The notes: generated by a model from the letters alone, not told the origin. Positions 42,330 through 64,000 are shown, counted from the first letter of the stretch. The stretch: 64,000 nt of DNA from Minisyncoccota bacterium (GCA_965216295.1 OZ244141.1:78163-142162); one strand, 5' to 3'. Program-made: numbers and translations.

Positions 42330-42449
42330 ATGCACAAAAGAAGTGTAAAAAAAACAAACAAAAAACACGGTTTTCTATCAAGGAGTAAAACAAGCTCAGG
42401 AAAGAAGGTTATTCAACGAAGAAGGCTTCGAGGAAGGAAAAGTATATAG
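42330..42449 (+). CDS. rpmH: 50S ribosomal protein L34 (not in the ORF track; found by manual translation)
   Basis: Translation gives MHKRSVKKTNKKHGFLSRSKTSSGKKVIQRRRLRGRKSI, matching the L34 pattern (K(R)T.Q....K...HGFR.R......G..VL..RR.KGRK.L). Its stop overlaps the rnpA ATG. Confidence 0.8.
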   Translation: MHKRSVKKTNKKHGFLSRSKTSSGKKVIQRRRLRGRKSI

Positions 42450-42766: not shown

Positions 42767-42835
42767 AAAGTGCTATTGTGGAAAACATACTAAACAAAAA
42801 CAAAAAAAAGAGTAATGGTATATACTGACTGAGTA

Positions 42836-44983: not shown

Positions 44984-45466
44984 CTATTGTATGATAAAAT
45001 TAAGGAATTTTAATGAAACCAAATCAGGGTTAACGGTATTTAATATTATATAGGATCCTATAAGGATAACCAAACTCAATAATCCATTTTTTAGCACTGT
45101 TAAAGCCTCCTCTCGCCCCTTCACATGACCACCCGCAGTTAGTGCTAATAGCCTTACCCCATAAAAGGCAATAACAACCGTAGTAAATATTGCGGCAAGA
45201 GAAAAGGCAATTTTAAAAAGTGCCGTCAATAATTTTCGAATTAACTTATTTATTTCTTCTTGATCCTTAATATTAACTCCAATCCCAGCTCCGGGTGCGG
45301 GAGGTTTAAATCCTGGTATGCCAACAGAAAAATAAATTGTTTGCATTTGGTTTTGAGAAACAGCGGTCATTTTTTGTATAGGGGTGGTGAAAAAAAACAG
45401 CGCTGTTGTAAAAAAAGCAACCACTATGGTAACGCAAATGTATTTATAGCTCGATAGTAAAATCAT
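44984..45466 (-). CDS. Small membrane protein, candidate VirB2/TrbC-like pilin
   Basis: Signal-like N-terminus plus two C-terminal hydrophobic helices. The size and topology fit T4SS pilins. There is no sequence-level family proof. Confidence 0.3.
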   Translation of the reverse strand: MILLSSYKYICVTIVVAFFTTALFFFTTPIQKMTAVSQNQMQTIYFSVGIPGFKPPAPGAGIGVNIKDQEEINKLIRKLLTALFKIAFSLAAIFTTVVIAFYGVRLLALTAGGHVKGREEALTVLKNGLLSLVILIGSYIILNTVNPDLVSLKFLNFIIQ

Positions 45467-46526: not shown

Positions 46527-46965
46527 ATGTCAGGTATATCGACCACAAAGGAAATGTAGAGAGAATAGGGATGCTTTCAATAATGAATATAATTGGCAAA
46601 ACAACAATCAAACCAACCTTACCTTTTTTAGGAGGATTAACACCAAAGAGGACTAGGTAGAAAGACAGTATTATGATTGACAGAGTAAGGGGGAGTGCGA
46701 GGAGTGATGTGGAGAGTGCAATTGGATATCCTGCAAGACCTTGACCAATCTCCTCAAACCCAAAAAACGAGAGAGCAGATCCAACTACAGCAGCCACAGA
46801 TAAACCAGCAAGTGTTACTGGATTAAAAAATACCACAAGAAGAGGGAGATATATAAAATCAACAATCTCTTTGAAAACAAGGAGGGTTGTTGCAACAATC
46901 AAACCACCCCTCGGAAGCTCTGTAGATCCACTTCCGCCACGCTGTAAACGACGAATTTGTATCAT
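46501..46965 (-). CDS. Small polytopic membrane protein (about 4 TM), T4SS-like cluster component
   Basis: Four hydrophobic helices; overlaps neighbours on the same strand. Confidence 0.4.
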   Translation of the reverse strand: MIQIRRLQRGGSGSTELPRGGLIVATTLLVFKEIVDFIYLPLLVVFFNPVTLAGLSVAAVVGSALSFFGFEEIGQGLAGYPIALSTSLLALPLTLSIIILSFYLVLFGVNPPKKGKVGLIVVLPIIFIIESIPILSTFPLWSIYLTCVVFSYKK

Positions 46966-46969
46966 ACAA

Positions 46970-48790: not shown

Positions 48791-48791
48791 A

Positions 48792-49397
48792 CTATAGTTT
48801 TGGTACCGGCGCAGTGTCGCCCGGATTAAATGTTTGATACAACAATTCGGTAACAGCTTCGGTGTCTAGGCGAACAGCGCGAAGGCCTAAAGAGCGTATG
48901 TTATTTTGCACAAAAGAAACGCGTTGTTGTAGTTGTGTTTGAGCCTCTTCAAAGAAATTTTGTTGCTCGTTTGTTTTAGATTTTTTAAATGATAACGTTA
49001 GTGATTTTATTTGCACTGGAGAATAACCAATAATAAGAAAAAACTGCTTCGTCATAATTTCATTTGATTCAGTAAATTCAGTAATAAATTTGATATATTC
49101 TTTGGTTTGCAATCTCAACAACTCTACCTCCTGTTTGTTGTAAAGATTTTCTAAATATTCTAGGTGCTTTTGTATATTGAGGCGACGAGATTGTATAAGA
49201 ATCTGTATATTCACCTCTAATGAATTAAGCATACTCTGGAACTGATTGAGTATCGCTTCACGCTCCAAGTCAGACTTTAGATCAAAGTTTAATGAAGAAA
49301 CCAGCACGATTGCACAGAATATACCGTCCTCTCGAATGATAGTGCCATCTCGTATTTCTTTCAAAGGAACAAATGACTGTGTTGTTTTCTGTTTCAT
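48792..49397 (-). CDS. Hypothetical cytoplasmic protein, possibly a VirB4 N-terminal-domain-like accessory
   Basis: VPLKEIRDGTIIREDGIFCAIVLVSSLNFDLKSDLERE resembles the start of the VirB4/TraC N-domain. Immediately upstream of the ATPase. Confidence 0.3.
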   Translation of the reverse strand: MKQKTTQSFVPLKEIRDGTIIREDGIFCAIVLVSSLNFDLKSDLEREAILNQFQSMLNSLEVNIQILIQSRRLNIQKHLEYLENLYNKQEVELLRLQTKEYIKFITEFTESNEIMTKQFFLIIGYSPVQIKSLTLSFKKSKTNEQQNFFEEAQTQLQQRVSFVQNNIRSLGLRAVRLDTEAVTELLYQTFNPGDTAPVPKL

Positions 49398-49400
49398 ACG

Positions 49401-49823
49401 CTATGATGTTTGCCGACTGTCTTGAGAAAATTGTATCTCAGTAAGTAATTCTTTAATACGATCTGATTCATTATGATCTTTTTGAGTTTCTGAAACTTCT
49501 TCATTTTTTTGAGCCACTCTTTTTCGTGTAACCGCAACAGATTCTTGTTGTTTGTTCCAGACATATAATTTATCATTCAAGAGATATGTCAGCATTGCTC
49601 GAAGCAGGTCTATAAATGATTGGCTGTTGTGTTTGTAAAACGCTAACAATCCTCCAAGAACTCCAACAGGAGCACCCACAAGCAACGCGGTCCCAAACCC
49701 AACAAAGAAGAATAAAAAAATAAAGAGTCCAAGAGCTCCTCCTATGTACACAGCCTGCACAAAACTGAGCCCAAACAAAATGGTATCTGGAATATCAAGG
49801 TTTTGTGGTACTTGAAACCGCAT
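49401..49823 (-). CDS. Small 2-TM membrane protein (VirB3/PrgI-like candidate)
   Basis: Two adjacent TM helices followed by a charged tail. Positioned before the VirB4-like gene. Confidence 0.35.
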   Translation of the reverse strand: MRFQVPQNLDIPDTILFGLSFVQAVYIGGALGLFIFLFFFVGFGTALLVGAPVGVLGGLLAFYKHNSQSFIDLLRAMLTYLLNDKLYVWNKQQESVAVTRKRVAQKNEEVSETQKDHNESDRIKELLTEIQFSQDSRQTS

Positions 49824-49864
49824 ACACCCCCAGTATACCGCTTCTTTGCCACCCCACCTTCCAA

Positions 49865-50176
49865 TTATTGAGGTCGAGTGAGTATGATGCTTTTAATCTT
49901 TTTAAAGATCCTTTCATCAACAGCTTGGACAATCATCTTTTTCTCTTCATTAGAGACTCCCATCCGTTTATCAATGCTTTGAGTAAAAGAATCAGACCGC
50001 TTAATACCTGTAATGACACCAATCACATCTTCCTCAAGCGTACTGATTTGTGGGATAGATAGCTGAAATTCTTCAGCCAATAGTGCCAACTCTTTTTCTA
50101 GTATGGTCTGTATCGCATCACGTTTTTTATCACCATACTTACTCAATATCGCCAAAAAATTCCTTTTATAGTTCAT
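49865..50176 (-). CDS. Small hypothetical cytoplasmic protein
   Basis: ORF only; helical and charged. Confidence 0.3.
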   Translation of the reverse strand: MNYKRNFLAILSKYGDKKRDAIQTILEKELALLAEEFQLSIPQISTLEEDVIGVITGIKRSDSFTQSIDKRMGVSNEEKKMIVQAVDERIFKKIKSIILTRPQ

Positions 50177-50179
50177 ACA

Positions 50180-52096
50180 TTATTTATTATCACCTTTCTT
50201 TTTGGTACCATAGTATTTGTGAGTAAATTCCCTTGATGCGTTCGTGATTTTCCTTGCTCTATCATTAAGGATTTTTTTAGCAAATGCAATTCTTGCATCA
50301 CTATTTGGAGGAGCTTCTTTTGCTCGACCACTTCCTGCAATAATCTGATCAGCCTTCTTTCCATCCACCTCTCCTATTCTATCTGGATGATGTTGATTCA
50401 TGAGAAGTTTGTACTGATCTCGCATTTTTTCAGGAGAAGTTTCGTTTGACGTACCAAGTATTGCGTGATAGTCATCACCACTCACTTCATCAAGCTGTTT
50501 TCCTGTTGGAGGGGTATATCCTTTTTCTGTGCCATCTGAAGGGTTGTATGGGAGTGCCAGTTTTGATTCTTGTAGGTGTTCTAAACGACGGTTTTTGGGT
50601 ATCGGTGATCCACCACCACCACCACCATCATCTCCTGCTACTGATGGACGAGGGTTAGTTGAAGTTTTTTTATCTTCTTGTGTTTTAGCATCTTTCTTGC
50701 CACCACGATGACGATTAAAGAAGCCAGAAGCAGCACTTGATTTGAATAATATATGTCGATCTTTTAGCGATCTCCCCCCTTTCTTCTTATCACCCTGATC
50801 AATTGATCGTACATCACCAACAAACTCCTTTGTTATTCTCTTTGTTGCTTTCCCTACAGATGTTTTTCCAAGCCAAGCAGCTCTCCTTTTCGTCCACCCA
50901 TGAAATTGACCTTTTCCAACACTATCCGAAAAATCCCTCCCCTGCCATCGCCAATAATTTCGCAAATTCTGCAAACGACCTGTCAAGTTCACCCCGCCCT
51001 TAAGGGCTTTTTGTATCTTGTTAAAGAGACTGATAACGTGGAGTATGAGGAATATCGTAAGGAAGGCGAGAAAGATACTTCCTATAAATTCCTCATAAGG
51101 ACTATTTCCCAAATTTTCATTAAGTATCTTATCCATCAATTCTGTTATTTTAAATACAAACCATAATAGAAAGAAAATAATAACCGGCATTAACGCGGTG
51201 CTCTGTAATTTACCAACCCACCAGATTTTAAACTTTCCAAAAACATTCTTACCATCACCTCCGACAAATAAGGCAATTACGGCAATTGGTGATGTGATGA
51301 GTACAAGAATGGCAACAAAGAATCGTTCAAAAAAGAGAATGATAAGGTAGAAAAATGATGCTGCGAGAGCAAACTTGGTAATCATTGAGAAAAGATGAAA
51401 AAGAATACTCGCTTTAGCGATTGCGGTAGAGCCAGCGGGTGCACTGGCGCCAGAAGATGCACCCGAAAGGGAAATTTTTTGGTGTAAATTGGGATTTATA
51501 AGGTTATCAGCATACAAAGAATACAAACCAGATTGCTGTTGGAACAGAAGTGCAAACAGATTTGATACATCATAAATAAACAATACAAAAAAACCACTAA
51601 AGTTTACCAACAACGCAGCAATAAGTAGTCGTACCAACGTTGCCTTGCTATACCATCCTGGCTTTTCTCGAAGATGACTAAAAACAATCCCAACAGCGAT
51701 AGTTATGAATAGTGCAACAATAATAAGATTGGCGACATCTCTAAAAAACACCCAAACATCCTGAATAATACCTGATTCAGTGGGTGCAACAATGGTGCTA
51801 AATTCCAAGACAGTGAGTGTGGTGGCATGACGAAGCGCATCAAGAGACAAGTCTAATACATTACTTCCGATGGTGTTGTTAAGAAAATCAAACATTAGCT
51901 CAACAACCTTATAAATGGTACCAATAATTGCTGATGCCACCGCCCCCGCCCCCCCCGCTACATCTATTGGTGTTTCTGGTTTCGGAAATCCTGGTCCTTG
52001 TGCGAAGACCCATTGCCAGTCAACAAGTAGTACAACAAGCAATGCAATACAACACCACCCAGCTGTTTTAAATATTGTAATATTCACTTTTTTCAT
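50180..52096 (-). CDS. VirB6/TrbL-like polytopic membrane protein with a C-terminal J-like domain (HPD motif)
   Basis: Signal plus about 6 TM and a cytoplasmic tail ending in DDYHAILGTSNETSPEKMRDQYKLLMNQHHPDR (J-domain-like helix II/III with HPD). Confidence 0.5.
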   Translation of the reverse strand: MKKVNITIFKTAGWCCIALLVVLLVDWQWVFAQGPGFPKPETPIDVAGGAGAVASAIIGTIYKVVELMFDFLNNTIGSNVLDLSLDALRHATTLTVLEFSTIVAPTESGIIQDVWVFFRDVANLIIVALFITIAVGIVFSHLREKPGWYSKATLVRLLIAALLVNFSGFFVLFIYDVSNLFALLFQQQSGLYSLYADNLINPNLHQKISLSGASSGASAPAGSTAIAKASILFHLFSMITKFALAASFFYLIILFFERFFVAILVLITSPIAVIALFVGGDGKNVFGKFKIWWVGKLQSTALMPVIIFFLLWFVFKITELMDKILNENLGNSPYEEFIGSIFLAFLTIFLILHVISLFNKIQKALKGGVNLTGRLQNLRNYWRWQGRDFSDSVGKGQFHGWTKRRAAWLGKTSVGKATKRITKEFVGDVRSIDQGDKKKGGRSLKDRHILFKSSAASGFFNRHRGGKKDAKTQEDKKTSTNPRPSVAGDDGGGGGGSPIPKNRRLEHLQESKLALPYNPSDGTEKGYTPPTGKQLDEVSGDDYHAILGTSNETSPEKMRDQYKLLMNQHHPDRIGEVDGKKADQIIAGSGRAKEAPPNSDARIAFAKKILNDRARKITNASREFTHKYYGTKKKGDNK

Positions 52097-52102
52097 ACAT
52101 TA

Positions 52103-55100
52103 TTAGAAAAAGGGGCGCGGCACATTAACATCAGGTATATTAACAAAATCATCCAATCCAGACGGCGGTGTAGTTATTTTCCGAATACTTTCATCCCTAA
52201 TCCCATAATCAGTTTTCAACGACCTATCTTTTGTTCTGGACGATCTATCACCACCAGGAACTGATTTCCAGAAATTGGAATAATCCCCCAAAATCTTTTG
52301 CTGAACTCGTCCTCGTAACGCAGCGTTATACTGTCTGCCAATTGTATTGCTACTGAATTTTGTTGCCCTAAAGGTCTGAATAGCATCATCATCTTTACTA
52401 AAAATTCTAGCAAAATTAACTGTTTTTGCTTGATCATATCCTGTTCCGTATGTTCCGTAAGATTGTGACTGTAGATTAAATGTAGGAGTGTTTTGTAATG
52501 TTATGTTGGGAATATCAATTATTCCATTTTCATAAAATAGGTAAATGACTCTGGACAACGCCCGAGCTATATTCTTGGTTTTTGTTTCACGAACTTCCTT
52601 TTTCAATGTATTAAGTGTACCTGATTCACAAAAACCTTGGCCCTCAACAGTAACATTAATTTTATCTGTACATTTTTTATAAGCAGGCGCTGCCCCGTTT
52701 TTAATTTTTTTCACAAGAGCTTTCTCAACATTTTGTGGCGTGACTTCATCACTTCCCACCAACTTACTCCTAATTTTCTTTACCCCCTCATTTCTCTCAT
52801 TTTTATACCCATCACTCAAAAAAACATCATCCTCTCCTCGAACACGGAGATATACTCCTAACGTAGATTTATAATCACCAACCAGCTTTTCAGCTACTAT
52901 CTCTTTCTGTTCTAGGTAGGATAAGTCATTGTGAAAATTTCTAAAAGAAAGATTGTTAACATCTTCGTAATAGAGGAATGTATCAGAAACATTCTTCTTC
53001 TCATCCACTATAGTGGTTTCAGTCACATCAATCTTTTTTGTTTTACGACTAATGATGACAATTTTATTCCGCCTCTCTAAAGTTTCTTTAATTTGCACTT
53101 TGGCTTTGAATCCAGAAGGTATCTCGCCGAGCACTTGCTTGCTTTCCAAACTCTTTTTCACATGATCTTTATATATCTCATAAGCTTTATAATCCTGGTC
53201 AAGTTTGGGGTTTGTAACAAGATAGTTGCCCTCATTACCAATGACACCACTCAATAAGTATCGAGCATCACCCGCTGCTTCGACATATTCTTCTGCTTCT
53301 GCGTAACCACTTTCGTCTATAAACGCTACAAAGACCGAATCACCTCCATTAGCAAGTGCATTCGCATTACGATCAAGTTGACCGGTGTCCACCGCATCTA
53401 TACCTCCTTCTAAGAGGTTTTGAAAAACATTACTGAATGTTTGCTCTATTACACTAGATAGAAGGCTACCAATTTCACTAAACTCATCAGCTTCAGACAC
53501 TTGTTCGAGTGGCAGTTGTGAAGCGAATGAAAAGCTTTCTGAGATTAAACTGTAATCCTGATATATAGTTGGTTGTGTTAAGCAGTTAATAAAAGCATCA
53601 ATATCAATCAATCCATCAGAGTTATAACTTCCATCACTACCACACCCATCAGCCTTGTCAGCATCATGACTAGACATAAGAGCTCCAGTTTCAGATGTTA
53701 CCTGCTCTCTCTTTGAAACCGTATCACCAGATATATTATTACGAATCTCTTGTGCATCAAAGAATGTTCCAATGTATAGTTCACTAAACGACTGTGCTAC
53801 ATTAAATGGTCTAAAAGTCACATCTTCTTCTATAATTTTCACATTAACATCTATATCCACATCCACGCCAAAATCAACAGTGCTTTTATTAATATTGTCA
53901 AATATATCACTCCCCTTACACGCCCTGGTTTTAATAATACCAATCCCCAATTCATCCTTTATAAGGCGTGTAAAATCAAGATTAAGGCTGTCATTACAAA
54001 AGAACCCCAAACCCTCTCCTGTCAAAAAACTTCCAACAGCCTCGTCAGCTAAATTTTTCCAGTACTCAGAAGGATTGTCTTGGAAAAAATTTGCTTCATT
54101 GCTCCAATTTACATATTTAGAAAGAAGACCTTGGGTTAGCGCGCTTGAAGCGATTCGTGCAATTCCATCGAGAAGACATTCCTTACCCACATTTGCCAGA
54201 TCGTTAGTTGGTACGCTGATTATAGAAGCGAGACCTCCTAGACCAGCAGCCAAGCAAGCAAGCAAGGTCGCCGCTGCCGCCACAACGCCCGATAAAAGAC
54301 TGCTGCCCGATCCACCACCACCACCACCTCCTTCACCTTCAAGAAGTGTTTCACCAAAATCTTCAAAATCTTCATCTGAGTTTGTTTGCACTTTTAAAAA
54401 TTCAGGTGCCACCACCTCTTCTTCATTCAACCCTTGATAAACAGCAGATATACCCCAATCTCCATCTGTTAGTTTTAAACGAACGCTACCATCACCCTTT
54501 CTTGTTTTTTCTACAACTTCCCCCGTATCTTGATTGAGCGCCACGATAGTTATTTCAATATTAGGAAATCCAGACACTTCAATTCTGTTGTCTATTTCTC
54601 CAGAAGGTGATTCAAAACCCAAAGTTTTGTTGGGCGTTTTTATCTCCAACAGGTCAGGAACATTTGTGGTTATTTCCTTACCTAAACTATCTTTATATGT
54701 AAAACTCAATGACCACTTACCATTTCCTAGAAGTAAGTCTATATAATCATTATCTTTTTGCCTTTCCTTTTTCAAAACCCGATTCCCTCTAGATGCTTTA
54801 ATAGTTATTGGGGTTTTTGGGTCTGCACTATTTATGTTATTTATTGTTATTTTATTTATTAAATTTTCACTAGGTGAAGTAAAGGAGAGAAATATGGGTT
54901 TGAGTGAAGAACCACCACCTTCTTCAGAACCAGATGGATCCCCACCACCATCTTTTTCAGAACCAGATGGATCCTCACCACCACCTTCTTCAGAACCAGA
55001 CGGATCCCCACCACCATCTTTTTCAGAACCAGACGGATCCCCACCACCATCTTTTTCAGAACCAGACGGATCCCCACCACCATCTTTTTCAGAACCAGAT

Positions 55101-55606
55101 GGATCCTCATTACCACCTCTGGGATTATTAGTTCTTCTAGTGATAAATTTTATAAAAGCAGCATTCACAGAACTTCCGGTGTATAAGGAATTATTCCTTC
55201 CAGCACCGTTAAGATTGGAACCATTACCACCATCAAAACCAGACGAACCATTACCACCATCAAAACCAGACGAACCATTACCACCACCACCATTACCACC
55301 ATCAAAACCAGACGAACCATTATCACCATCAAAACCAGACGAACCACCACCACCTCCAGGAGCAGTTGTGCTACTATCAAGGTCACCACCAGGAGGTTTT
55401 ATATTAAATATCCTAGCCAAATCTTTTGATGTTTTTGGTTCTAAAGAAGTTCCTCTTAAGGACGGGTCTACCAAAACCTCGCCATCTCCTAGTCGATCAA
55501 GCGTTCCTCGTTTTGCTTCGTCACCCTCTAAGATAAATAAATAGACACCGCTCGCTACCAAAACAACCACAGAAACAACACCAATAAGGATAAATCTAAA
55601 AGTCAT
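52103..55606 (-). CDS. Giant (1167 aa) Gly/Asp/Pro-rich repeat protein with an N-terminal TM and an internal hydrophobic segment
   Basis: Repeats (GNGSSGFDGG) x4 and (DPSGSEKDGGG) x6; poly-Gly stretches; mid-protein TM (VVAAAATLLACLAAGLGGLASII). Confidence 0.5.
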   Translation of the reverse strand: MTFRFILIGVVSVVVLVASGVYLFILEGDEAKRGTLDRLGDGEVLVDPSLRGTSLEPKTSKDLARIFNIKPPGGDLDSSTTAPGGGGGSSGFDGDNGSSGFDGGNGGGGNGSSGFDGGNGSSGFDGGNGSNLNGAGRNNSLYTGSSVNAAFIKFITRRTNNPRGGNEDPSGSEKDGGGDPSGSEKDGGGDPSGSEKDGGGDPSGSEEGGGEDPSGSEKDGGGDPSGSEEGGGSSLKPIFLSFTSPSENLINKITINNINSADPKTPITIKASRGNRVLKKERQKDNDYIDLLLGNGKWSLSFTYKDSLGKEITTNVPDLLEIKTPNKTLGFESPSGEIDNRIEVSGFPNIEITIVALNQDTGEVVEKTRKGDGSVRLKLTDGDWGISAVYQGLNEEEVVAPEFLKVQTNSDEDFEDFGETLLEGEGGGGGGGSGSSLLSGVVAAAATLLACLAAGLGGLASIISVPTNDLANVGKECLLDGIARIASSALTQGLLSKYVNWSNEANFFQDNPSEYWKNLADEAVGSFLTGEGLGFFCNDSLNLDFTRLIKDELGIGIIKTRACKGSDIFDNINKSTVDFGVDVDIDVNVKIIEEDVTFRPFNVAQSFSELYIGTFFDAQEIRNNISGDTVSKREQVTSETGALMSSHDADKADGCGSDGSYNSDGLIDIDAFINCLTQPTIYQDYSLISESFSFASQLPLEQVSEADEFSEIGSLLSSVIEQTFSNVFQNLLEGGIDAVDTGQLDRNANALANGGDSVFVAFIDESGYAEAEEYVEAAGDARYLLSGVIGNEGNYLVTNPKLDQDYKAYEIYKDHVKKSLESKQVLGEIPSGFKAKVQIKETLERRNKIVIISRKTKKIDVTETTIVDEKKNVSDTFLYYEDVNNLSFRNFHNDLSYLEQKEIVAEKLVGDYKSTLGVYLRVRGEDDVFLSDGYKNERNEGVKKIRSKLVGSDEVTPQNVEKALVKKIKNGAAPAYKKCTDKINVTVEGQGFCESGTLNTLKKEVRETKTKNIARALSRVIYLFYENGIIDIPNITLQNTPTFNLQSQSYGTYGTGYDQAKTVNFARIFSKDDDAIQTFRATKFSSNTIGRQYNAALRGRVQQKILGDYSNFWKSVPGGDRSSRTKDRSLKTDYGIRDESIRKITTPPSGLDDFVNIPDVNVPRPFF
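54910..55125. repeat. Tandem 33-bp repeats (about 6 copies) encoding DPSGSEKDGGG units
   Basis: ttcagaaccagatggatccccaccaccatcttt repeated with minor variants. Confidence 0.8.
55219..55355. repeat. Tandem 27-bp repeats (about 4-5 copies) encoding the GNGSSGFDG units
   Basis: accaccatcaaaaccagacgaaccatt repeated. Confidence 0.75.
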
Positions 55607-56486: not shown

Positions 56487-56994
56487 TTGAGGAGGACGTT
56501 TTTCCAATCGCCCATTCTTACTATGCTTATTGTGAGGTGTTGGGTGAGGATGCATACACACAGTATATGGTAAAATGAAGTGTGGTGATATCAAACAGTA
56601 ATCAAACCTCTTTGGCGATAAGAGGAAAAATTGCCATTATTGTATGGAGTCTCTCTTTCTTCGCATTTTTTAGTCCTCAAGAAGTAGACGCGTTTTTCAT
56701 ACCCGAGGGAGGTCGTATATTAATTGCTCTCCCGCCCTGCCATCTTCCTATCCCCGGTTCAGTATGGACGCTCAGTATTAATTTAGCAACCAAATTACCT
56801 CACCCAGAACTGCGATTTCCCGTAGCACCAAGAGCACACTATATTCCACCACTACCTATAACAAATACTTTAGGACAAGCATTACCCATCAGGTTGCCGT
56901 GCTGTTGGTATATAGGGATAGCTATCATATGCAACCCTGTTCCAGGATTTCTTCCAGCACCACCCTCTCTTTACGGTGCCTCTTTTTAGAAAGA

Positions 56995-57750
56995 TTAGAG
57001 TAATGCTGCGCATTGTTTCCAAGAATCAAAAGAAACATCTTCCGCTCGTGTTGTTTCTGTAACACCACAATTCATTAAACGGGTTTGTATGTCACTGTTG
57101 TGTGCAAACTTTTTTAACACCGCTTTTCGTTTATGTCTGAAAGCTGTGTGGATTAGTGAAAAAAAGTTTTGCTGTAATTGCTCTTCAACAGGAGAAATAT
57201 TTTCTATACTCAATATTGCGGAAGACACTTGAGGTTTTGGATGAAATGCTTGAGGCGGTACTGTTGTGATAATTTTTGGTGTACCAAAAAGACGAACAGA
57301 AAGTGAGAGGAGTGAGTGTTTGGTACGATGGGTAATTCTTTGAGCAACTTCCTTTTGCAACAAAAGAGCCATGCGAGTTGGTGGTACAGACGACGTTAGT
57401 AATAATCGCAACAGTGAGCTGGTGAGATAGTATGGTATGTTTGCCACAACCACAAATGGGGTTTTGGATATATGACTTTTCCATGATTCGTTTCGCGCAT
57501 CATCTTGTATGAGAACCAACTGCTCTTTCTCCAATGCCTCAGCAAATCGTTTCTGTAGACACTCTACTAAAACAGGATCTTTTTCTACGGCGTAGAGTTT
57601 TTTTGTATGTAAAAGGAGGAGTTCTGTTAAGACACCCTTACCAGGCCCGATTTCTAAAACCACTTCATTGTGCTGTATATGTGCCGCCTTTATTAACATC
57701 CCAGCAAATCGTTTGCTTTTTAAAAAATGTTGTCCTAATCGTGCTCGCAT
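56995..57750 (-). CDS. rsmA: 16S rRNA (adenine1518/1519-N6)-dimethyltransferase
   Basis: KsgA motifs GQHFL and SAM-binding VLEIGPGKGVLT; NIPY motif (VANIPYYLTS). Confidence 0.85.
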   Translation of the reverse strand: MRARLGQHFLKSKRFAGMLIKAAHIQHNEVVLEIGPGKGVLTELLLLHTKKLYAVEKDPVLVECLQKRFAEALEKEQLVLIQDDARNESWKSHISKTPFVVVANIPYYLTSSLLRLLLTSSVPPTRMALLLQKEVAQRITHRTKHSLLSLSVRLFGTPKIITTVPPQAFHPKPQVSSAILSIENISPVEEQLQQNFFSLIHTAFRHKRKAVLKKFAHNSDIQTRLMNCGVTETTRAEDVSFDSWKQCAALL

Positions 57751-57875: not shown

Positions 57876-57911
57876 TATAAAAATAAAGATGCGCTCATTG
57901 CTGAGCGCATC
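57876..57911 (-). terminator. Intrinsic terminator after paralog A
   Basis: GATGCGCTCA-gcaa-TGAGCGCATC hairpin (10-bp GC-rich stem) followed on the minus strand by TTTATTTTTAT. Confidence 0.7.
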
Positions 57912-57938
57912 TAAAGACTAAAACCTAGCCGTGAACTC

Positions 57939-58526
57939 TTATTTCAGAGCCGTTTGATCCATTACCCCTCTCAATTCATCAAGTCTCTCATCCAACGCGA
58001 CAGTTATCCGAGTTCTATAAGCAGAAATGACATCAACAGGTAACCTTAAAGTCTTACTATCAGCAAAATACTCTTTGCTCGAGTTCATAATGCTTTCCAC
58101 ATATGCAGGATTATCAGCCTGAGCATTGCAGTCGCGAACATAGATAGTAGTAATAGCATCAACCATCATGAGGTCTTCTCCGTTTACATGGAGAAGTAAA
58201 CGGCAGTATTCACCACCATCAACTCCCAAAGCATCATCAATACGACTAAAAACCGAATCACAATAACCCAATTTTTCAACCGCAACAACACCATCTTCAA
58301 GAGCGTGAACTATTCCAATGCATGTCTCCGATTTTCCGGATTCGGGTGAATGACGCTCACGCCACACAGACGCAACATAAGGATATGTTTTTTCGGTCAC
58401 ATTTTCCGGAGTTGTGGAAGTTACATCAGGGTACCCTCCAGTTCCAAAAGACGGACTCGCAGCAAACGCCACGGGAAAACTAAGCAGGGTGGCAAGAGTT
58501 CCACCAAACAAAAATTTTATATTCAT
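57939..58526 (-). CDS. Secreted small Cys-containing protein, paralog family member A
   Basis: Signal peptide MNIKFLFGGTLATLLSFPVAFA|ASPSFGTGGYPDV. GGAGAAG RBS. Four conserved Cys. The track ORF 57939..58568 uses an upstream TTG. Confidence 0.6.
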   Translation of the reverse strand: MNIKFLFGGTLATLLSFPVAFAASPSFGTGGYPDVTSTTPENVTEKTYPYVASVWRERHSPESGKSETCIGIVHALEDGVVAVEKLGYCDSVFSRIDDALGVDGGEYCRLLLHVNGEDLMMVDAITTIYVRDCNAQADNPAYVESIMNSSKEYFADSKTLRLPVDVISAYRTRITVALDERLDELRGVMDQTALK

Positions 58527-58609
58527 AATACTTCTCCAAAGCAATGAAAAACAAAAAACCCGCACCAAAGATACAGGCAGACTAAAGAACGATAATCTAA
58601 TCCAAAAGA

Positions 58610-58638
58610 ATTGTACTATATAAACATGTGGTTGTCAA
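58610..58638 (-). promoter_or_regulatory. Sigma70-type promoter of paralog A
   Basis: Minus strand reads TTGACA-17 nt-TACAAT, about 85 nt upstream of the ATG. Confidence 0.6.
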
Positions 58639-58650
58639 ATAGCTGTTTAG

Positions 58651-58686
58651 TATAAAAACAAAGATGCGCTCATTGCTGAGCGCATC
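58651..58686 (-). terminator. Intrinsic terminator after paralog B
   Basis: Identical hairpin plus U-tract. Confidence 0.7.
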
Positions 58687-58713
58687 TAAAGACTAAAACC
58701 TAATCGCGAACTC

Positions 58714-59298
58714 TTATTTCAGAGCCGTTTGATCCATTACCCCTCTCAATTCATCAAGTCTCTTATCCAACGCGGTAGTTATCCGAGTTCTATAAGCAGA
58801 AATGACATCAACAGGTATCCTTACTTTACTATTAGCAAAATAATCTTTATATTTTTCCTTCAAATTCATCATGTCTTCTATATATGCAGGATTACCAAGC
58901 TGAGTATTACAATTGCGAACATGGATATTAGTAATAGCATCAATTGGCATAAGATTAAGATCCACCACTTTTTTGTTGAAATAGCAGTATTCACCAACAC
59001 CAACTCCCAAAGCATCATCAATACGACTAAAAATCGAGCCACAATAACCCAACTTTTCAACTGCAAAAACATCATCTTCAAGAGCATGAACTATTCCAAT
59101 ACATTCCGGTTCATCAGGCGACCAGGACTCATACCACACATCCAGAATATAAGGATATGTTTTTTCGGTCACATTTTCCGGAGTTGTGGAAGTTACATCA
59201 GGGTACCCTCCAGTTCCAAAAGACGGACTCGCAGCAAACGCCACGGGAAAACTAAGCAGGGTGGCAAGAGTTCCACCAAACAAAAATTTTATATTCAT
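58714..59298 (-). CDS. Secreted small Cys-containing protein, paralog B
   Basis: Same signal peptide and N-terminus as A; diverged middle; C-terminus conserved with A (VISAYRTRIT.ALD.RLDELRGVMDQTALK). Confidence 0.6.
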   Translation of the reverse strand: MNIKFLFGGTLATLLSFPVAFAASPSFGTGGYPDVTSTTPENVTEKTYPYILDVWYESWSPDEPECIGIVHALEDDVFAVEKLGYCGSIFSRIDDALGVGVGEYCYFNKKVVDLNLMPIDAITNIHVRNCNTQLGNPAYIEDMMNLKEKYKDYFANSKVRIPVDVISAYRTRITTALDKRLDELRGVMDQTALK

Positions 59299-59381
59299 AA
59301 TACTTCTCCAAAGCAATGAAAAACAAAAAACCCGCACCAAAGATACAGGCAGACTAAAGAACGATAATCTAATCCAAAAGA

Positions 59382-59410
59382 ATTGTACTATATAAACATG
59401 TGGTTGTCAA
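59382..59410 (-). promoter_or_regulatory. Sigma70-type promoter of paralog B
   Basis: TTGACA accacatgtttatatag TACAAT on the minus strand. Confidence 0.6.
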
Positions 59411-59422
59411 ATAGCTGTTTAG

Positions 59423-59456
59423 TATAAAAAAGGTGCGCTCATTGCTGAGCGCACCT
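59423..59456 (-). terminator. Intrinsic terminator after paralog C
   Basis: GGTGCGCTCA-gcaa-TGAGCGCACC variant with compensatory stem change, plus TTTTTTAT. Confidence 0.7.
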
Positions 59457-59543
59457 AAGGGCTAAAACCTAATCGCGAACTCTTATTTCAGAGTTGTTTA
59501 ATTCACACCGCCTATTTTAACCTAGCAATCTTCCTCTCAGTCA

Positions 59544-60023
59544 TCAGGACTTAGATTCAGAAATAAGATTAGCAGGTGATAGTTGTGCTCTGTTAGCAAG
59601 AAACTCTTTATATTTTTCTTTCAGGTTATCAAGACATCCTTGAGAGATGTCAGCAGAACCATTACAGCTCAACTGAGCACCAGTTCGAACATAGATGGTT
59701 GTAAAAGTATCAATTTTTCCAAGCAGAGAATAATTCTTCGAATCTTTCAAACTCAACAAATAATTACAATTCGGATCATCATCACCCACTTTTTCAATCA
59801 TGAGAACACCGTCTTCAAGAGCATGAACTATTACAATGCATCTATAATCTAGTGATCTATAATTCCACACAGACATGAGACGAGGATACGGAGCCGCTTT
59901 TTCCGGAGTTATGGAAGTTACACCGGGGTACCCTCCAGTTCCAAAAGACGGACTCGCAGCAAACGCCACGGAAGAGCTAAGCAGGGCGACAAAAACCGCA
60001 CCAAACAAAAATTTTACATTCAT
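59544..60023 (-). CDS. Secreted small Cys-containing protein, paralog C
   Basis: MNVKFLFGAVFVALLSSSVAFA|ASPSFGTGGYPGV; C-terminus of type GCLDNLKEKYKEFLANRAQLSPANLISESKS. Confidence 0.6.
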   Translation of the reverse strand: MNVKFLFGAVFVALLSSSVAFAASPSFGTGGYPGVTSITPEKAAPYPRLMSVWNYRSLDYRCIVIVHALEDGVLMIEKVGDDDPNCNYLLSLKDSKNYSLLGKIDTFTTIYVRTGAQLSCNGSADISQGCLDNLKEKYKEFLANRAQLSPANLISESKS

Positions 60024-60104
60024 AATACTTCTCCTAAGTAATTTAAAATGAGTCCTGCGCCAAAGATACAGGCAGACCAAAGAACGATAATCTAATCCAA
60101 AAGA

Positions 60105-60133
60105 ATTGTAATACATAATAGTGTATTTGTCAA
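60105..60133 (-). promoter_or_regulatory. Sigma70-type promoter of paralog C
   Basis: TTGACA aatacactattatgtat TACAAT. Confidence 0.6.
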
Positions 60134-60145
60134 ATAGCTGTTTAG

Positions 60146-60179
60146 TATAAAAAAGGTGCGCTCATTGCTGAGCGCACCT
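60146..60179 (-). terminator. Intrinsic terminator after paralog D
   Basis: Same GGTGCGC variant. Confidence 0.7.
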
Positions 60180-60266
60180 AAGGGCTAAAACCTAATCGCG
60201 AACTCTTATTTCAGAGTTGTTTAATTCACACCGCCTATTTTAACCTAGCAATCTTCCTCTCAGTCA

Positions 60267-60752
60267 TCAGGACTTAGATTCAGAAATAAGATTAGCAGGT
60301 GATAGTTGTGCTCTGTTAGCAAGAAACTCTTTATATTTTTCTTTCAGGTTATCAAGACATCCTTGAGAGATGTCAGCAGAACCATTACAGCTCAACTGAG
60401 CACCAGTTCGAACATAGATGGTTGTAAAAGTATCAATTTTTCCAAGCAGAGAATAATTATCCATAGAATAATTTTCTATCGTAAAATTCCACAAAGAATC
60501 ACAATTCGAACTCACTTTTTTAATCATGAGAACATCCTCTTCAAGCAAATAAGCTACACCAGCACAACCAGAATCCGGCGAGTATCTCTGTTTCCACACA
60601 GACATGAGACGAGGATACGGAGCCACTTTTTCCGGAGTTATGGAAGTTACACCGGGGTACCCTCCAGTTCCAAAAGACGGACTCGCAGCAAACGCCACGG
60701 AAGAGCTAAGCAGGGCGACAAAAACCGCACCAAACAAAAATTTTACATTCAT
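60267..60752 (-). CDS. Secreted small Cys-containing protein, paralog D
   Basis: Near-identical N- and C-termini to C; diverged centre. Confidence 0.6.
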   Translation of the reverse strand: MNVKFLFGAVFVALLSSSVAFAASPSFGTGGYPGVTSITPEKVAPYPRLMSVWKQRYSPDSGCAGVAYLLEEDVLMIKKVSSNCDSLWNFTIENYSMDNYSLLGKIDTFTTIYVRTGAQLSCNGSADISQGCLDNLKEKYKEFLANRAQLSPANLISESKS

Positions 60753-60841
60753 AATACTTCTCCTAAGTAATTTAAAAATGAGTCCTGCACCAAAGGAAAG
60801 GTACAGGTAGACTATAAAAAACTATAATCTAATCCAAAAGA

Positions 60842-60870
60842 ATTGTAATACATAATAGTGTATTTGTCAA
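60842..60870 (-). promoter_or_regulatory. Sigma70-type promoter of paralog D
   Basis: TTGACA-17 nt-TACAAT. Confidence 0.6.
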
Positions 60871-60882
60871 AGAGCTGTTTGG

Positions 60883-60916
60883 TATAAAAAAGATGCGCTC
60901 ATTGCTGAGCGCATCT
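60883..60916 (-). terminator. Intrinsic terminator after paralog E
   Basis: GATGCGC variant plus U-tract. Confidence 0.7.
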
Positions 60917-60971
60917 AAGGGCTAAAACATAATCGCGAACTTTCGTTTCAGAGTTGTTTAATTCACACCAC

Positions 60972-61493
60972 CTATTTTAACCTAGCAATCTTCCTTCCAG
61001 ACATCACGATAAAGCTAGATCCAGAAATAAAATTAATAGTTCGTTCCCTGTTGGCAAGAAACTCTTCGTGTTTTTCTTTCAGGTTATCAAGAGAACATCC
61101 TTGAGGGGTGTCAGCAGAACCATTACAGCTCAACTGAACATCATTTCGAACATGGATAGTTGTAAAGGCATCAATTTTTCCAAGCAGAAAATAATTCTCC
61201 GAATCTCCCACCGATTTCCACGAATAATCACAATTCGTCGGACCAATATCCACTTCTTCAATCATGAGAACACCATCTTCAAGCAGATAAACTATTCCAC
61301 TACAGCCAGAATTCGGTGCGTATCTCTGATTCCACACAGATATGAAACGAGGATACGGATCCACTTTCTCTGAAATTGTGGAAGTTACACCAGAGGATCC
61401 TCCAGCTCCAAAAGATGGACTCGCAGCAAACGCCACGGAAGAGCTAAGTATGGTGATGACAAGAGTCGCACCAAACAAAAACTTTATATTCAT
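60972..61493 (-). CDS. Secreted small Cys-containing protein, paralog E
   Basis: MNIKFLFGATLVITILSSSVAFA|ASPSFGAGG; conserved Cys pattern; distinct C-terminus. Confidence 0.55.
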   Translation of the reverse strand: MNIKFLFGATLVITILSSSVAFAASPSFGAGGSSGVTSTISEKVDPYPRFISVWNQRYAPNSGCSGIVYLLEDGVLMIEEVDIGPTNCDYSWKSVGDSENYFLLGKIDAFTTIHVRNDVQLSCNGSADTPQGCSLDNLKEKHEEFLANRERTINFISGSSFIVMSGRKIARLK

Positions 61494-61586
61494 AATACTT
61501 CTCCTAAATAATTTAAAATGAGCCCTGCACCAAAGGTACGGGTAGACTATAAAAAACCATAATCTAATCCAATAACACAGTAATAC

Positions 61587-61615
61587 ACAATAACATTTTT
61601 GTCAAATAATTGTTT
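61587..61615 (-). promoter_or_regulatory. Sigma70-type promoter of paralog E (weaker -10)
   Basis: TTGACA-17 nt-TACTGT. Confidence 0.45.
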
Positions 61616-61650
61616 AGTATAAAAAAGATGCGCTCGTAATGAGCGCATCC
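61615..61650 (-). terminator. Intrinsic terminator region downstream of MLMQQP paralog 2 (loop variant gtaat)
   Basis: GATGCGCTC-attac-GAGCGCATC plus TTTTTTAT. Confidence 0.65.
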
Positions 61651-61800
61651 CAATTCCTCCAGGTTAAAAGTACAAGCTTGATGGAGTAAAGAAAAAACTT
61701 AATAGAGTTGTTGCTCCGTCACCCTCTTCTCATAATTCTCCTCAATCTCCTTCCGAATCTTCCACATCCCCATCATTTTCGGTGATTTTGAAGTAAAAGC

Positions 61801-62298
61801 TCATCCCCAACCAGGGAGCAACAAGGAGTAATTCACAATTATAGAAAGGTCAGTACATTGCTCAAACCCTACAGTGCGACTCCTAATAAATTCAGGAGAA
61901 CCAACCAAAACGATAAAAGCATCATCTTGATTAGTAAAACACTGCACGAATGTATCCACAATCACCGTTTCTGAAATACACAGAAGTCCAGCAATGTTTC
62001 GCACCGTATAAGTACCATCGTAAGCACCATAGTTTTTATATGAAACAAGCTTGATAAAGCGCGGATCAGACAACGAAGTTTCAATAGAACTGTTAAAATC
62101 TATAAGATCAGGTACTTCCTCCTTGAGGGGAAGAAGATGAATAAGAGGGTGAGGTCTTCTTTCATCATTAAGAACGTTGGGAGCACCCATTACCGCCTTT
62201 CGCTCTTCATTTTGACCAATGTACTCTAGAGCAATATAATCTTTGGTTTCGGCAAGACATAATACTTGCCGATTTGGTTTTGGTTGTTGCATAAGCAA
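61801..62298 (-). CDS. Cytoplasmic hypothetical protein, MLMQQP family paralog 2 (C-terminus diverged/truncated)
   Basis: Paralog of 62519..63097 through ...SPEFIRSRTV, then diverges. GGAGG RBS. Confidence 0.5.
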   Translation of the reverse strand: MLMQQPKPNRQVLCLAETKDYIALEYIGQNEERKAVMGAPNVLNDERRPHPLIHLLPLKEEVPDLIDFNSSIETSLSDPRFIKLVSYKNYGAYDGTYTVRNIAGLLCISETVIVDTFVQCFTNQDDAFIVLVGSPEFIRSRTVGFEQCTDLSIIVNYSLLLPGWG

Positions 62299-62389
62299 AC
62301 CTCCATAATTGATTCAAAGAAACCTGCACACAACATAAAAAGTCGCGTTGCAGTAGAAAGTAGATGAATCAAATCAACTACCTAAATGT

Positions 62390-62418
62390 ATTGTAATGTA
62401 TAACAGTGTGTTTGCCAA
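62390..62418 (-). promoter_or_regulatory. Sigma70-type promoter of MLMQQP paralog 2
   Basis: TTGGCA aacacactgttatacat TACAAT. Confidence 0.55.
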
Positions 62419-62430
62419 TAGTTGTTTAGT

Positions 62431-62466
62431 ATAAAAACAAAGATGCGCTCATTGCTGAGCGCATCT
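62431..62466 (-). terminator. Intrinsic terminator after MLMQQP paralog 1
   Basis: GATGCGC hairpin plus U-tract. Confidence 0.7.
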
Positions 62467-62518
62467 TGAAAATTTCCTCCAGGTTAAAAGTACAAACTTA
62501 ATGAAGTAAAGAAAAAAC

Positions 62519-63097
62519 TTAATAGAGTTGTTGCTCCATCTGATTCATTTCCTTCTCCCTCTGAATCCCAATCTTTCCCATCAGAGAGTCTATCAACTGA
62601 TTAACAAGTGTGGGATAATGCACAACCTTAAAAGGGTCAGCGCGTTGCTCTTCATTTGTTTTCTCAAACCTTACAGTGCGACTCCTAATAAATTCAGGAG
62701 AACCAACCAAAACGATAAAAGCACCATCTTGACTAGTAAAACACTGCACGAATGTATCCACAATCACCGTTTCTGGTATACACAGAACCCCAGCAATGTC
62801 TCGCACGGTACAAGTACTACCATTTCTGTAAGTATAATCAGTTCTGGAAGATACAAATCTGATAAAGCGCGAATCAAACAACGAAATTTCAATGGATTTT
62901 TTAAAATCTATAAGATCAGGTACTTCCTCCTTGGGGGGAAGAAGATGAAGAGGACAACGAACCCCTCCTTCATCATTAAAAGGGCTGTCGTGACATGTCG
63001 CCCCCCATTCTTTATACTGATCAGAGTACTCCAGAGCAATATAATCTTTGGTTTCTACAAGATATAACACCTGCCGTTCTGGTTGTTGCATAAGCAA
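62519..63097 (-). CDS. Cytoplasmic hypothetical protein, MLMQQP family paralog 1
   Basis: No signal peptide. Conserved core ETVIVDTFVQCFT.QD.AFIVLVGSPEFIRSRTV. Confidence 0.5.
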   Translation of the reverse strand: MLMQQPERQVLYLVETKDYIALEYSDQYKEWGATCHDSPFNDEGGVRCPLHLLPPKEEVPDLIDFKKSIEISLFDSRFIRFVSSRTDYTYRNGSTCTVRDIAGVLCIPETVIVDTFVQCFTSQDGAFIVLVGSPEFIRSRTVRFEKTNEEQRADPFKVVHYPTLVNQLIDSLMGKIGIQREKEMNQMEQQLY

Positions 63098-63188
63098 ACC
63101 TCCATAATTGATTCAAAGAACCTGCACACAACACCAAAAGGTCGCATCACAGTAGAAAGTAGATGAATCAAATCAACTATCTAAATGT

Positions 63189-63217
63189 ATTGTAATATAT
63201 AACAGTGTGTTTGCCAA
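63189..63217 (-). promoter_or_regulatory. Sigma70-type promoter of MLMQQP paralog 1
   Basis: TTGGCA-17 nt-TACAAT, directly after the stop of the helicase gene. Confidence 0.55.
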
Positions 63218-63233
63218 TAGTTGTTTACTATAC

Positions 63234-64000
63234 CTACCATTTTATAATCACACCAGGTGTTGTTTCATTTCTATCCTGAAAATCATCATAGAGAGCAAGG
63301 AGTGCTTGATCGTCAAATATGTCATACAAGAACGATGATGCTTGCACAGTTCTATGTTTACCCAAAAAACTACGCCGTCTTGCATACGAGCAGTACAGCA
63401 ACTTTTGCGCTCGTGTAATTGCTACATAACAGAGTCGTCGTTCCTCTTCAGCATCCCCTCTATCATCTGTTGTGAGGAATGGAAACAAACCTTCTTCCAG
63501 GCCACTTAAAAACACAACAGGAAATTCTAATCCTTTAGCCGCATGTACGGTCATTAATCGAACACCATCTCGGTGGTGACGAAGTGTGTCTTGATCAGAG
63601 CTCAATGCAGCTTCAGTGAGTATGGCATCAACACCTTTGGTTCCTTGCAGATGTGAAAATTTCTCAGCAAATGCAATTAATTCATACACCTCTTGTTTTC
63701 TTTCTTCAGGATTACCAAACGTTTCATTGAGATACGTATCATAGTCAATGGTTTTGATAAGTTTCTGTAATGTGTGTGCCACCGTCTGTGTTTCAAGAGA
63801 TTTCCGCACGTCATCAACAACCTCTTCAAACCGCTGTACCTTTTTCTGTATACGCGGAGTAATTGCATTTCGTTGCCCAGAAAAAAGTTTTTCAATTGTT
63901 TTTGCACCAATACCACGAGAAGGAATGCCGACAGCGCGAATGAAAGCATCGCGAGCGTTTCTATTCCGTGCGAGCGTTAGATATGCTAACAACCCACTTA
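63234..64000 (-). CDS. UvrD/PcrA/Rep-family helicase, C-terminal part (gene continues beyond the window end)
   Basis: Helicase motifs V/VI region: LMTVHAAKGLEFPVVFLSGLEEGLFP, VAITRAQKLLY. Confidence 0.7.
   Translation of the reverse strand, partial: SGLLAYLTLARNRNARDAFIRAVGIPSRGIGAKTIEKLFSGQRNAITPRIQKKVQRFEEVVDDVRKSLETQTVAHTLQKLIKTIDYDTYLNETFGNPEERKQEVYELIAFAEKFSHLQGTKGVDAILTEAALSSDQDTLRHHRDGVRLMTVHAAKGLEFPVVFLSGLEEGLFPFLTTDDRGDAEEERRLCYVAITRAQKLLYCSYARRRSFLGKHRTVQASSFLYDIFDDQALLALYDDFQDRNETTPGVIIKW

Follow-up and report, generated by a model that had tools for sequence, protein, structure and literature searches.

The DNA analyzed here, a window of 64,000 nucleotides (nt) from a Minisyncoccota bacterium (GCA_965216295.1, OZ244141.1:78163-142162), carries an array of seven small gene cassettes between a UvrD-type helicase gene and rsmA. 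Five of them (A to E, here family 1) are paralogous cassettes standing in tandem on the minus strand at 57887-61605, and 2/7 come from a second family whose proteins start MQQP. A sequence-only reading of this DNA had described five tandem paralogs, and five open reading frames (ORFs) with a common N-terminus were indeed found on the minus strand; five as the total extent of the array did not stand, as the two MQQP cassettes use the same junction. The likely start of A to E is the ATG preceded by GGAGAAGTATT, rather than that of longer TTG-initiated ORFs. The cassettes are the following:

57887-58638, minus strand: cassette A; coding sequence 57939-58526, 195 amino acids (aa), long C-terminal helix; TTGACA-17-TACAAT box 58638-58610; leader hairpin and T-run 58578-58558; Shine-Dalgarno GGAGAAG; terminator 57912-57887
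58662-59410, minus strand: cassette B; coding sequence 58714-59298, 194 aa; promoter-like box 59410-59382; leader hairpin and T-run 59350-59330; terminator 58687-58662
59431-60133, minus strand: cassette C; coding sequence 59544-60023, 159 aa, short C-terminus; promoter-like box 60133-60105; terminator 59456-59431, G:C stem variant
60154-60870, minus strand: cassette D; coding sequence 60267-60752, 161 aa; promoter-like box 60870-60842; longer leader hairpin 60807-60784; terminator 60179-60154
60891-61605, minus strand: cassette E; coding sequence 60972-61493, 173 aa, intermediate C-terminus ..RKIARLK; promoter-like box with TTGACA 61605-61600 and degenerate -10 TACTGT 61582-61577; terminator 60916-60891
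61625-62418, minus strand: cassette MQQP-2; coding sequence 61801-62292, 163 aa; TTGGCA-17-TACAAT box 62418-62390; terminator variant 61651-61625
62440-63217, minus strand: cassette MQQP-1; coding sequence 62519-63091, 190 aa; TTGGCA-17-TACAAT box 63217-63189; terminator 62467-62440

Every cassette is bounded by a junction of ~75 nt that runs from a strong hairpin terminator through an A/T-rich stretch to the -35 box, its 17-nt spacer, and the -10 box, and the secreted-protein cassettes additionally have the leader, a strong Shine-Dalgarno sequence, the signal peptide, and a tag in common. Whole-unit DNA alignment and pattern searches gave the order hairpin terminator, TTTTATACTAAACAGCTAT, TTGACA, 17-nt spacer, TACAAT, and 83-89 nt to the ATG, and within the window the hairpin and junction are confined to this array. 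The terminator, AG(A/G)TGCGCTCAGCAATGAGCGCA(T/C)CT plus a T-run, has an 11-bp G+C stem (-18 to -21 kcal/mol), and that of MQQP-1 is the same hairpin as in cassettes A to E; terminator-like sites number 14 in the region versus 4.7 ± 2.0 in shuffles. The strong GC hairpin with compensatory variants that had been claimed for each cassette was thus borne out, including a real change from A:T to G:C in the stem (AGATGCGC..GCGCATCT versus AGGTGCGC..GCGCACCT). A TTGACA-17-TACAAT promoter had been proposed for every gene; this box is present in A to D, but E has TTGACA-17-TACTGT, with a weak -10. Three contigs of the European Nucleotide Archive (ENA) sample ERZ25071281, here the sister contigs L001 to L003, hold the same uvrD...rsmA locus, and over 19 cassettes on four contigs TTGACA is invariant, the spacer keeps its length while its sequence drifts, and the -10 is nearly invariant.

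The untranslated leader, put earlier at about 90 nt, is conserved, but the -10-to-ATG distance gives it a length of ~77-84 nt. It occurs as two alleles in a mosaic distribution, one with a terminator-like hairpin and T-run (-10 kcal/mol) and the other reading GACTCA, and the hairpin tail (T6 versus T7, in sister-contig cassettes) is the sole length-variable tract seen among the 19 cassettes. No known leader or riboswitch was matched in Rfam, and RNAalifold predicted two hairpins in the leaders, with covariation support absent. In the leaders of A and B, a weak hairpin is followed by TTTTTTGTTTTT just before the Shine-Dalgarno sequence, which has an attenuator-like look; C, D, and E have a different allele. 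The terminator after MQQP-1 differs between L001 (9848-9865) and L002 (7641-7658) by inversion of the 4-nt loop (CTAC versus GTAG) on the same stem, a change of the kind caused by recombination within a palindrome. The junction, for instance at 59425-59440 and 60148-60163 (minus strand), reads CCTTTTTTATACTAA and agrees in 14/15 bases with the att core of phage lambda (GCTTTTTTATACTAA). Chance is the most likely reason, as the T-run of a terminator here adjoins an A/T-rich promoter-upstream stretch.

The near-identical signal peptide and mature N-terminus reported for the paralogs were found in 5/5 proteins, as MN(I/V)KFLFG..(S)VAFA-ASPSFG(T/A)GG(YP)(G/D)VTS (the hyphen marks the predicted cleavage site). 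The N-terminus has the features of a Sec/signal peptidase I (SPase-I) signal, namely MNIK, a 17-residue hydrophobic core, and the AxA motif VAFA-A, and it is the sole hydrophobic segment in A to E (Kyte-Doolittle 19-residue scan, cut-off 1.6), so the mature proteins should be soluble. These are 15-19 kDa and acidic (isoelectric point 4.6-5.8), and they begin with a flexible, S/T/P/G-rich tag. We looked for anchoring motifs in A to E and found no lipobox, LPXTG, or transmembrane (TM) segment; the signal ends ..SVAFA-ASPSFG, and the first 60 residues are without Cys. Four Cys are present in each protein, as had been stated, but only three positions align in all five, with the fourth Cys preceding the third in A/B and following it in C/D/E. 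Instead of the two alternative C-termini described before, we found three that are nested: long in A/B, intermediate in E, and short in C/D. The early stop of C/D arises by a 4-nt frameshift relative to E, and the DNA downstream of the stop in C, D, and E, although non-coding, can still be aligned to the coding end and stop codon of A/B; one homologous 3′ DNA module underlies all C-termini. In an A-like subtype of the sister contigs (L001 10001-10594, L002 7794-8393, L003 497-1081), the equivalents of Cys108 and Cys133 are both replaced (R/H and H), which suggests a disulfide between them in the other copies; the paired loss may be one single evolutionary event.

Sliding identity along the cassettes revealed a mosaic. 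A and B are 99-100% identical over the first ~270 nt (junction, leader, signal peptide, and tag) and again identical near the 3′ end, and C and D differ only by indels in the leader and in ~150 nt at the center, with 100% identity over the 3′ ~300 nt. The central cores are nearest to their orthologs in other strains (A 90-92%, B 94%, C 92%, D 97%), whereas the 5′ module of A is 99% identical to its neighbor B versus 91% to its ortholog, and the 3′ half of C is 100% identical to its neighbor D versus 91% to its ortholog. These incongruent segment-wise neighbors point to gene conversion between adjacent copies on the flanks, homogenizing them within the genome. By sequence comparison, the cores are distinct, fairly stable types across strains rather than products of continuous hypermutation, and the idea of ongoing hypervariation gained no support: with cores 90-97% identical between strains, what changes is cassette content, along with the homogenization of the flanks. 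A diversity-generating retroelement was rejected, as the variable blocks hold indels and the core types are stable between strains; no reverse transcriptase was found among the large window ORFs scanned.

Copy-number variation in relatives, which the sequence-only reading had left to be searched for, was found in L001 to L003, whose rsmA protein is 97% identical to that of the window (dS 0.047). The cassette orders are the following:

Window: MQQP1, MQQP2, E, D, C, B, A
L001: MQQP1, A-like, Cys-rich, MQQP3, MQQP2, chimera, D-like
L002: MQQP1, A-like, Cys-rich, MQQP2, A-like, remnant
L003: ..MQQP1, A-like, Cys-rich, MQQP3, MQQP2, chimera, D-like, C-like, B-like, ...

The arrays therefore vary from strain to strain in how many cassettes they have, which ones, and in what order. 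E has no ortholog in the three sister contigs, and the order D-C-B is collinear with the independent contig L003 at 90.6% identity. The Cys-rich gene (L001 10784-11191) has an identical signal peptide and tag on an unrelated body, and the chimera (L001 12919-13377) has a family-1-type signal peptide on an MQQP-type C-terminal domain, so that the constant N-terminal module carries three bodies: the family-1 core, the Cys-rich domain, and the MQQP-type C-domain. Both genes indicate that the export module is exchangeable. The last array position of L002 (10782-11100) holds a 45-aa remnant with a different signal peptide and the same tag (..GGSFGTEGYLGVTST), after which comes an unrelated ORF of 59 aa that matches a PHROG weakly (phrog_21831, 2.8e-4).

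The proteins evolve fast. Ratios of nonsynonymous to synonymous substitution rates (dN/dS, Nei-Gojobori) are 0.5-1.9 between paralogs and 0.6-1.4 between orthologs, versus 0.30 for rsmA and 0.16 for MQQP-1, and family-1 dN is 3-12 times that of rsmA. Pooled over four independent ortholog pairs, nonsynonymous to synonymous changes number 122:36 versus 11:13 in neighboring genes (Fisher p = 0.0025). Meanwhile, 13/13 copies (5 here and 8 in the sister contigs) keep the reading frame, signal peptide, Cys pattern, and core residues. Intact copies, the Cys pattern, invariant core residues, and hexamers kept beside drifting spacers argue against plain decay. Positive diversifying selection in family 1 is plausible.

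Family 1 was not recognized by the sequence-only reading, and our searches agree, with no match in Pfam, NCBIfam, PADLOC, PHROGs, or the PDB, by sequence or by fold; the housekeeping assignment that was sought as a refutation did not turn up in homology or fold searches either. When 5.8 billion proteins were searched with a profile, there were 12 hits, each on the source contig, recorded there at 511,782 bp, or on one of the three contigs of ERZ25071281, and a full hidden Markov model scan of 1.84 billion cluster representatives matched nothing but the two that belong to the family itself. The family was not found in GTDB species genomes, in JGI metagenomes (by protein pattern and junction DNA), or in IMG/VR viral contigs, the latter leading us to reject a prophage origin. 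Pfam gave no match for the 13 family-1 members even at E ≤ 5, and Pfam, NCBIfam, PADLOC, and PHROGs none for the MQQP family or the Cys-rich variant. The MQQP family, found only in the source genome and the same three contigs, and the Cys-rich domain of the sister contigs are equally orphan.

MQQP-1 and MQQP-2 represent a separate paralogous family without a signal peptide, with its own leader and with TTGGCA-17-TACAAT boxes, and profile-profile comparison found no relationship between it and family 1. Its predicted model (predicted local distance difference test, pLDDT, 38) is unusable. MQQP-2 is shorter than MQQP-1 through truncation, and what remains of the ..EQQLY end is still present as non-coding DNA at 61705-61800. 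The tag SPSFGTGGYP (residues 24-33 of A to E) resembles internal MQQP segments SPFNDEGGVRCP and NPFKARGGGYGPP, located at residues 36-46 of MQQP-1 and ~33-46 of MQQP-3 (L001 11410-11910), and residues 24-33 of the chimera, NPFFENKGYH, are also tag-like. This hints at a short tag module common to both families, with chance possible (hhalign E = 0.45).

Around the array, the following neighbors were identified:

63234-63992, minus strand: 3′ part of a gene for a UvrD/PcrA-type helicase, the array's conserved border on the upstream side
56995-57750, minus strand: rsmA/ksgA, 16S rRNA dimethyltransferase (RrnaAD, 5.9e-48), conserved downstream border of the array by synteny
56582-56989, plus strand: Pro-rich 135-aa ORF with a signal-like N-terminus, between rsmA and a gene for a 322-aa protein
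52103-55606, minus strand: 1167-aa protein, family not recognized, between rsmA and the genes like those of a type IV secretion system (T4SS)
44984-52096, minus strand: T4SS-like genes, downstream of the array on the same strand, comprising the next four
50180-52096, minus strand: 638-aa multi-pass membrane protein
49401-49823, minus strand: PrgI (2e-7)
46970-48790, minus strand: VirB4-like ATPase (TraG P-loop 2e-22, AAA_10)
44984-45466, minus strand: pilin-like protein with two TM segments (PF18895 2.4e-5, just under the Pfam cut-off)
40806-42233: dnaA, following the T4SS-like genes

Downstream of rsmA on the same strand, the order is the 322-aa and 1167-aa proteins, the 638-aa membrane protein, PrgI, the VirB4-like ATPase, the pilin-like protein, and dnaA. 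The array had been placed immediately upstream of a T4SS-like cluster; the shared strand and the T4SS-like genes were confirmed, but not the direct adjacency, as the array lies 5.8-13 kb from the PrgI, VirB4-like, and pilin-like genes, with rsmA and three ORFs (the opposite-strand, 322-aa, and 1167-aa ones) between them. A monoderm-type T4SS near dnaA, dnaN, and ksgA has been described in Patescibacteria (PMC12102498), and the arrangement of T4SS-like genes beside dnaA and ksgA here matches that picture. The Pro-rich ORF has no family match; in L001 and L002 it was likewise predicted as a gene, of 132 aa. The 1167-aa protein has Gly/Ser/Asp-rich tandem repeats at 54911-55106 and 55218-55358 (a 33-nt unit × 5.9, and units of 27-69 nt), and its ortholog is split in L001 (606 and 776 aa) and 1377 aa long in L002. 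The region of the 1167-aa and 322-aa genes is 66-80% identical to the sister contigs, and the uvrD side 96.5%. Protein matches of rsmA, all in Patescibacteria and some Chloroflexota metagenome-assembled genomes (MAGs), reach at most 46% identity, the best being from Patescibacteria, indicating that the organism is an unrepresented, uncultured Patescibacterium (candidate phyla radiation, CPR).

Taking these results together, we favor, at somewhat better than even confidence, a recombination-shuffled array of independently expressed, exported small proteins with a role in host interaction. The cassette anatomy, the orphan status, the differences in cassettes between strains, the mosaic of identities, and the high nonsynonymous rate are results of the analysis; that the promoters and terminators work, that the proteins are exported and form disulfides, and that they act on a host is inferred. 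Seven monocistronic expression cassettes would form a recombination-prone array between uvrD and rsmA, with the identical cassette ends serving as substrates for homologous recombination. Gene conversion would homogenize the flanks of adjacent copies, unequal exchange would add, delete, and reorder cassettes, and the export module would now and then be joined to a different body, while the diverged central cores would persist as a repertoire of distinct types. The Sec/SPase-I signal would release the family-1 proteins to the cell surface or the medium, where they would most likely form a variable set of adhesin- or effector-like proteins, made in abundance, that contact a host bacterium's surface or its phages. 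This role at the host or phage interface is suggested by the signals for export and for strong expression, by a repertoire that is specific to each strain, and by the way of life generally ascribed to Patescibacteria (PMC12102498), whose hosts remodel their surfaces against these epibionts (PMC13622651); the organism probably depends on a host. The data cannot separate an effector from a surface antigen or a bacteriocin.

Several points weigh against this reading. Family 1 is confined to one species-level lineage of one metagenome, which leaves little comparative power. For A, AlphaFold2 gave a weak model (pLDDT 55.7) in which a beta-sheet-plus-helix core scores 60-80 and the N-terminal tag is disordered; the model has no fold match among solved structures, so that no biochemical activity can be proposed. 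The sigma-70-type scan found 18 sites versus 17.3 in shuffled sequence, no overall excess, and the promoter argument therefore depends on position and on conservation among non-independent copies. The diversifying selection proposed earlier was upheld as rapid evolution, but the dN/dS test for omega > 1 was not significant (for example, C versus D, p = 0.21), and relaxed constraint could account for part of the divergence.

A wider version of the favored reading, which we consider unlikely, treats the junction (~75-270 nt, from the terminator and promoter through the leader to the signal peptide and tag) as a portable expression-and-export adaptor, with which an episymbiont of minimal genome would recombine unrelated bodies (family-1 cores, the Cys-rich domain, and the MQQP C-domain) into a combinatorial set of secreted proteins. 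This repertoire and the T4SS-like machine would together set which host cells can be attached to or exploited, and the MQQP proteins would be the same kind of cargo on a non-Sec path. Also unlikely is a bacteriocin or polymorphic-toxin locus, in which the secreted proteins would be antibacterial toxins and the cytoplasmic MQQP proteins their immunity partners. The constant N-terminus with varying bodies, including unrelated domains in sister strains, the interleaving of small cytoplasmic with secreted proteins in L001 to L003, and the fast protein evolution all suit it, but Pfam, NCBIfam, and PADLOC revealed no toxin or immunity domain, and one-to-one pairing is missing, as E, D, C, B, and A follow one another with only the junction between. 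Selection on MQQP-1, in addition, is of the usual purifying kind, and this protein does not vary together with the secreted ones; an MQQP C-domain behind a signal peptide in one variant would be odd for an immunity protein. The T4SS neighborhood invites another explanation, quite unlikely in our view, that the proteins are T4SS accessories or cargo, either adhesins on the tip or surface of the pilus with a VirB5-like role or Sec-exported subunits passed to the T4SS as in pertussis toxin/Ptl. The array is near and co-oriented with the PrgI, VirB4-like, and pilin-like genes, arrays of T4SS-adjacent Sec-signal proteins recur in Patescibacteria (PMC7427843; PMC12102498), and the 322-aa and 1167-aa proteins on the T4SS side are also strongly divergent between strains. 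However, rsmA and the opposite-strand ORF stand between the array and the T4SS genes, the proximity of rsmA and virB4 is general in Patescibacteria and independent of the array, and the same T4SS context occurs without family 1 outside the one species-level lineage. The family-1 proteins are not VirB2-like, and in a single-membrane cell Sec export alone puts a protein outside.

Structural proteins of the envelope or wall, with their variety explained as surface antigenic variation against phages or host-made defenses instead of action on the host, would share with the favored reading the export signal, the strong expression signals, the distinct-core repertoire, and the strain-specific cassette sets, and hosts of Patescibacteria do mount surface-directed defenses (PMC13622651). 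We judge this improbable to a similar degree, given the missing lipobox, LPXTG, or TM anchor and the fact that no on/off switch was found: promoter boxes are intact in all copies, so simultaneous rather than alternating expression would be expected. That the copies are functionless, decaying neutral duplicates, or the repeat an assembly artifact, seems very improbable. A dN/dS near 1, the orphan status, and the poorly predicted fold could be read that way; against it stand the 13 copies with their frames, signal peptide, Cys pattern, and core residues, the 90-97% conservation of core types across strains, the promoter hexamers that are kept while spacers drift, the distinct core of each unit, and the D-C-B collinearity with L003.

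Among known systems, the TM7x "secreted protein array" consists of T4SS-adjacent small proteins with Sec signals (McLean 2020, PMC7427843), and the same arrays were later reinterpreted as VirB2-like pilin arrays of 2-11 genes (Quinonero-Coronel 2025, PMC12102498). Like family 1, these are tandem runs of small, divergent signal-peptide proteins in the chromosomal T4SS/dnaA/ksgA neighborhood of a Patescibacterium, with variation thought to be linked to host range. Unlike them, family 1 does not match PF18895 and its mature part lacks membrane helices, and on the pilin profile and membrane-helix tests we rejected it as a VirB2-like pilin array; the pilin-like protein at 44984-45466, used as a control, has hydrophobic segments at 79-94 and 122-132, and A to E have none after the signal. 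The window also has this pilin-like gene separately, with the family-1 array on the far side of rsmA, and each family-1 gene has its own promoter-leader-terminator unit, with near-identical flanks versus ~25% overall identity. In a Saccharibacteria MAG (L020, 10541-11945), three VirB2-like pilin paralogs directly follow rsmA, indicating that the rsmA-T4SS linkage is widespread and that the known array type differs from the one in the window.

The design most resembles mycoplasma variable-surface-protein arrays and the cassette logic of polymorphic toxins. Variable surface lipoproteins are encoded in the vsp (M. bovis), vlp (M. hyorhinis), and vsa (M. pulmonis) gene arrays, which have in common with the array here a reduced genome, tandem paralogs with a conserved 5′ non-coding region and signal peptide but a divergent mature part, and a repertoire that changes through recombination between copies. 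Family 1 differs in having no lipobox Cys (SPase-I type, soluble) and a mature part free of tandem repeats; neither an invertase nor a homopolymer switch was identified, and all copies look promoter-competent. Polymorphic toxin and bacteriocin loci hold tandem orphan cassettes with a constant N-terminal trafficking module, and the constant module with alternative C-terminal bodies, the tandem cassettes, and recombination at conserved parts are found here too, but there is no recognizable toxin domain and no paired immunity gene, and each cassette is a complete gene, not a displaced 3′ tip. The ssl, lpl, and spl clusters of staphylococcal genomic islands are likewise runs of exported paralogs of ~20 kDa with strain-specific copy number and an implicated part in host interaction, but those have known folds, a wide distribution within the genus, and no junction common to an unrelated family. 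An integron array was rejected, as the flanks are uvrD and rsmA, each cassette has its own promoter boxes, and the repeat is a perfect 11-bp stem plus T-run of the intrinsic-terminator type. No recombinase gene borders the array in the window or the sister contigs, and the nearest tyrosine recombinase, on a sister contig, is ~8.5 kb off, beyond uvrD and several other genes. Tandem arrays of variable exported proteins are already known in host-dependent bacteria with reduced genomes; new here is an orphan family with an unusually clean junction that is also used by an unrelated family.

Patescibacteria are a large share of bacterial diversity and live mostly attached to other bacteria, and very few of their attachment or specificity molecules are known; a strain-variable, strongly signaled exported repertoire close to the T4SS region, which is conserved, offers concrete candidates. 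The cassette design also shows how a 0.5-Mb genome could maintain and reshuffle diversity without dedicated recombinases or retroelements, with general importance uncertain because the family is confined to one uncultured lineage. The window itself is ordinary chromosome, with genes for ribonucleotide reductase, PolA, a class A penicillin-binding protein, an aminoacyl-tRNA synthetase, a type IV pilus ATPase, YidC, DnaA, and DnaN, and with six tRNAs. The dnaN, dnaA, and yidC genes lie at 39445-43603, where the lowest G+C of the window is found (0.29 at 40-42 kb), which makes this stretch, immediately next to the T4SS-like cluster, the probable region of the replication origin.

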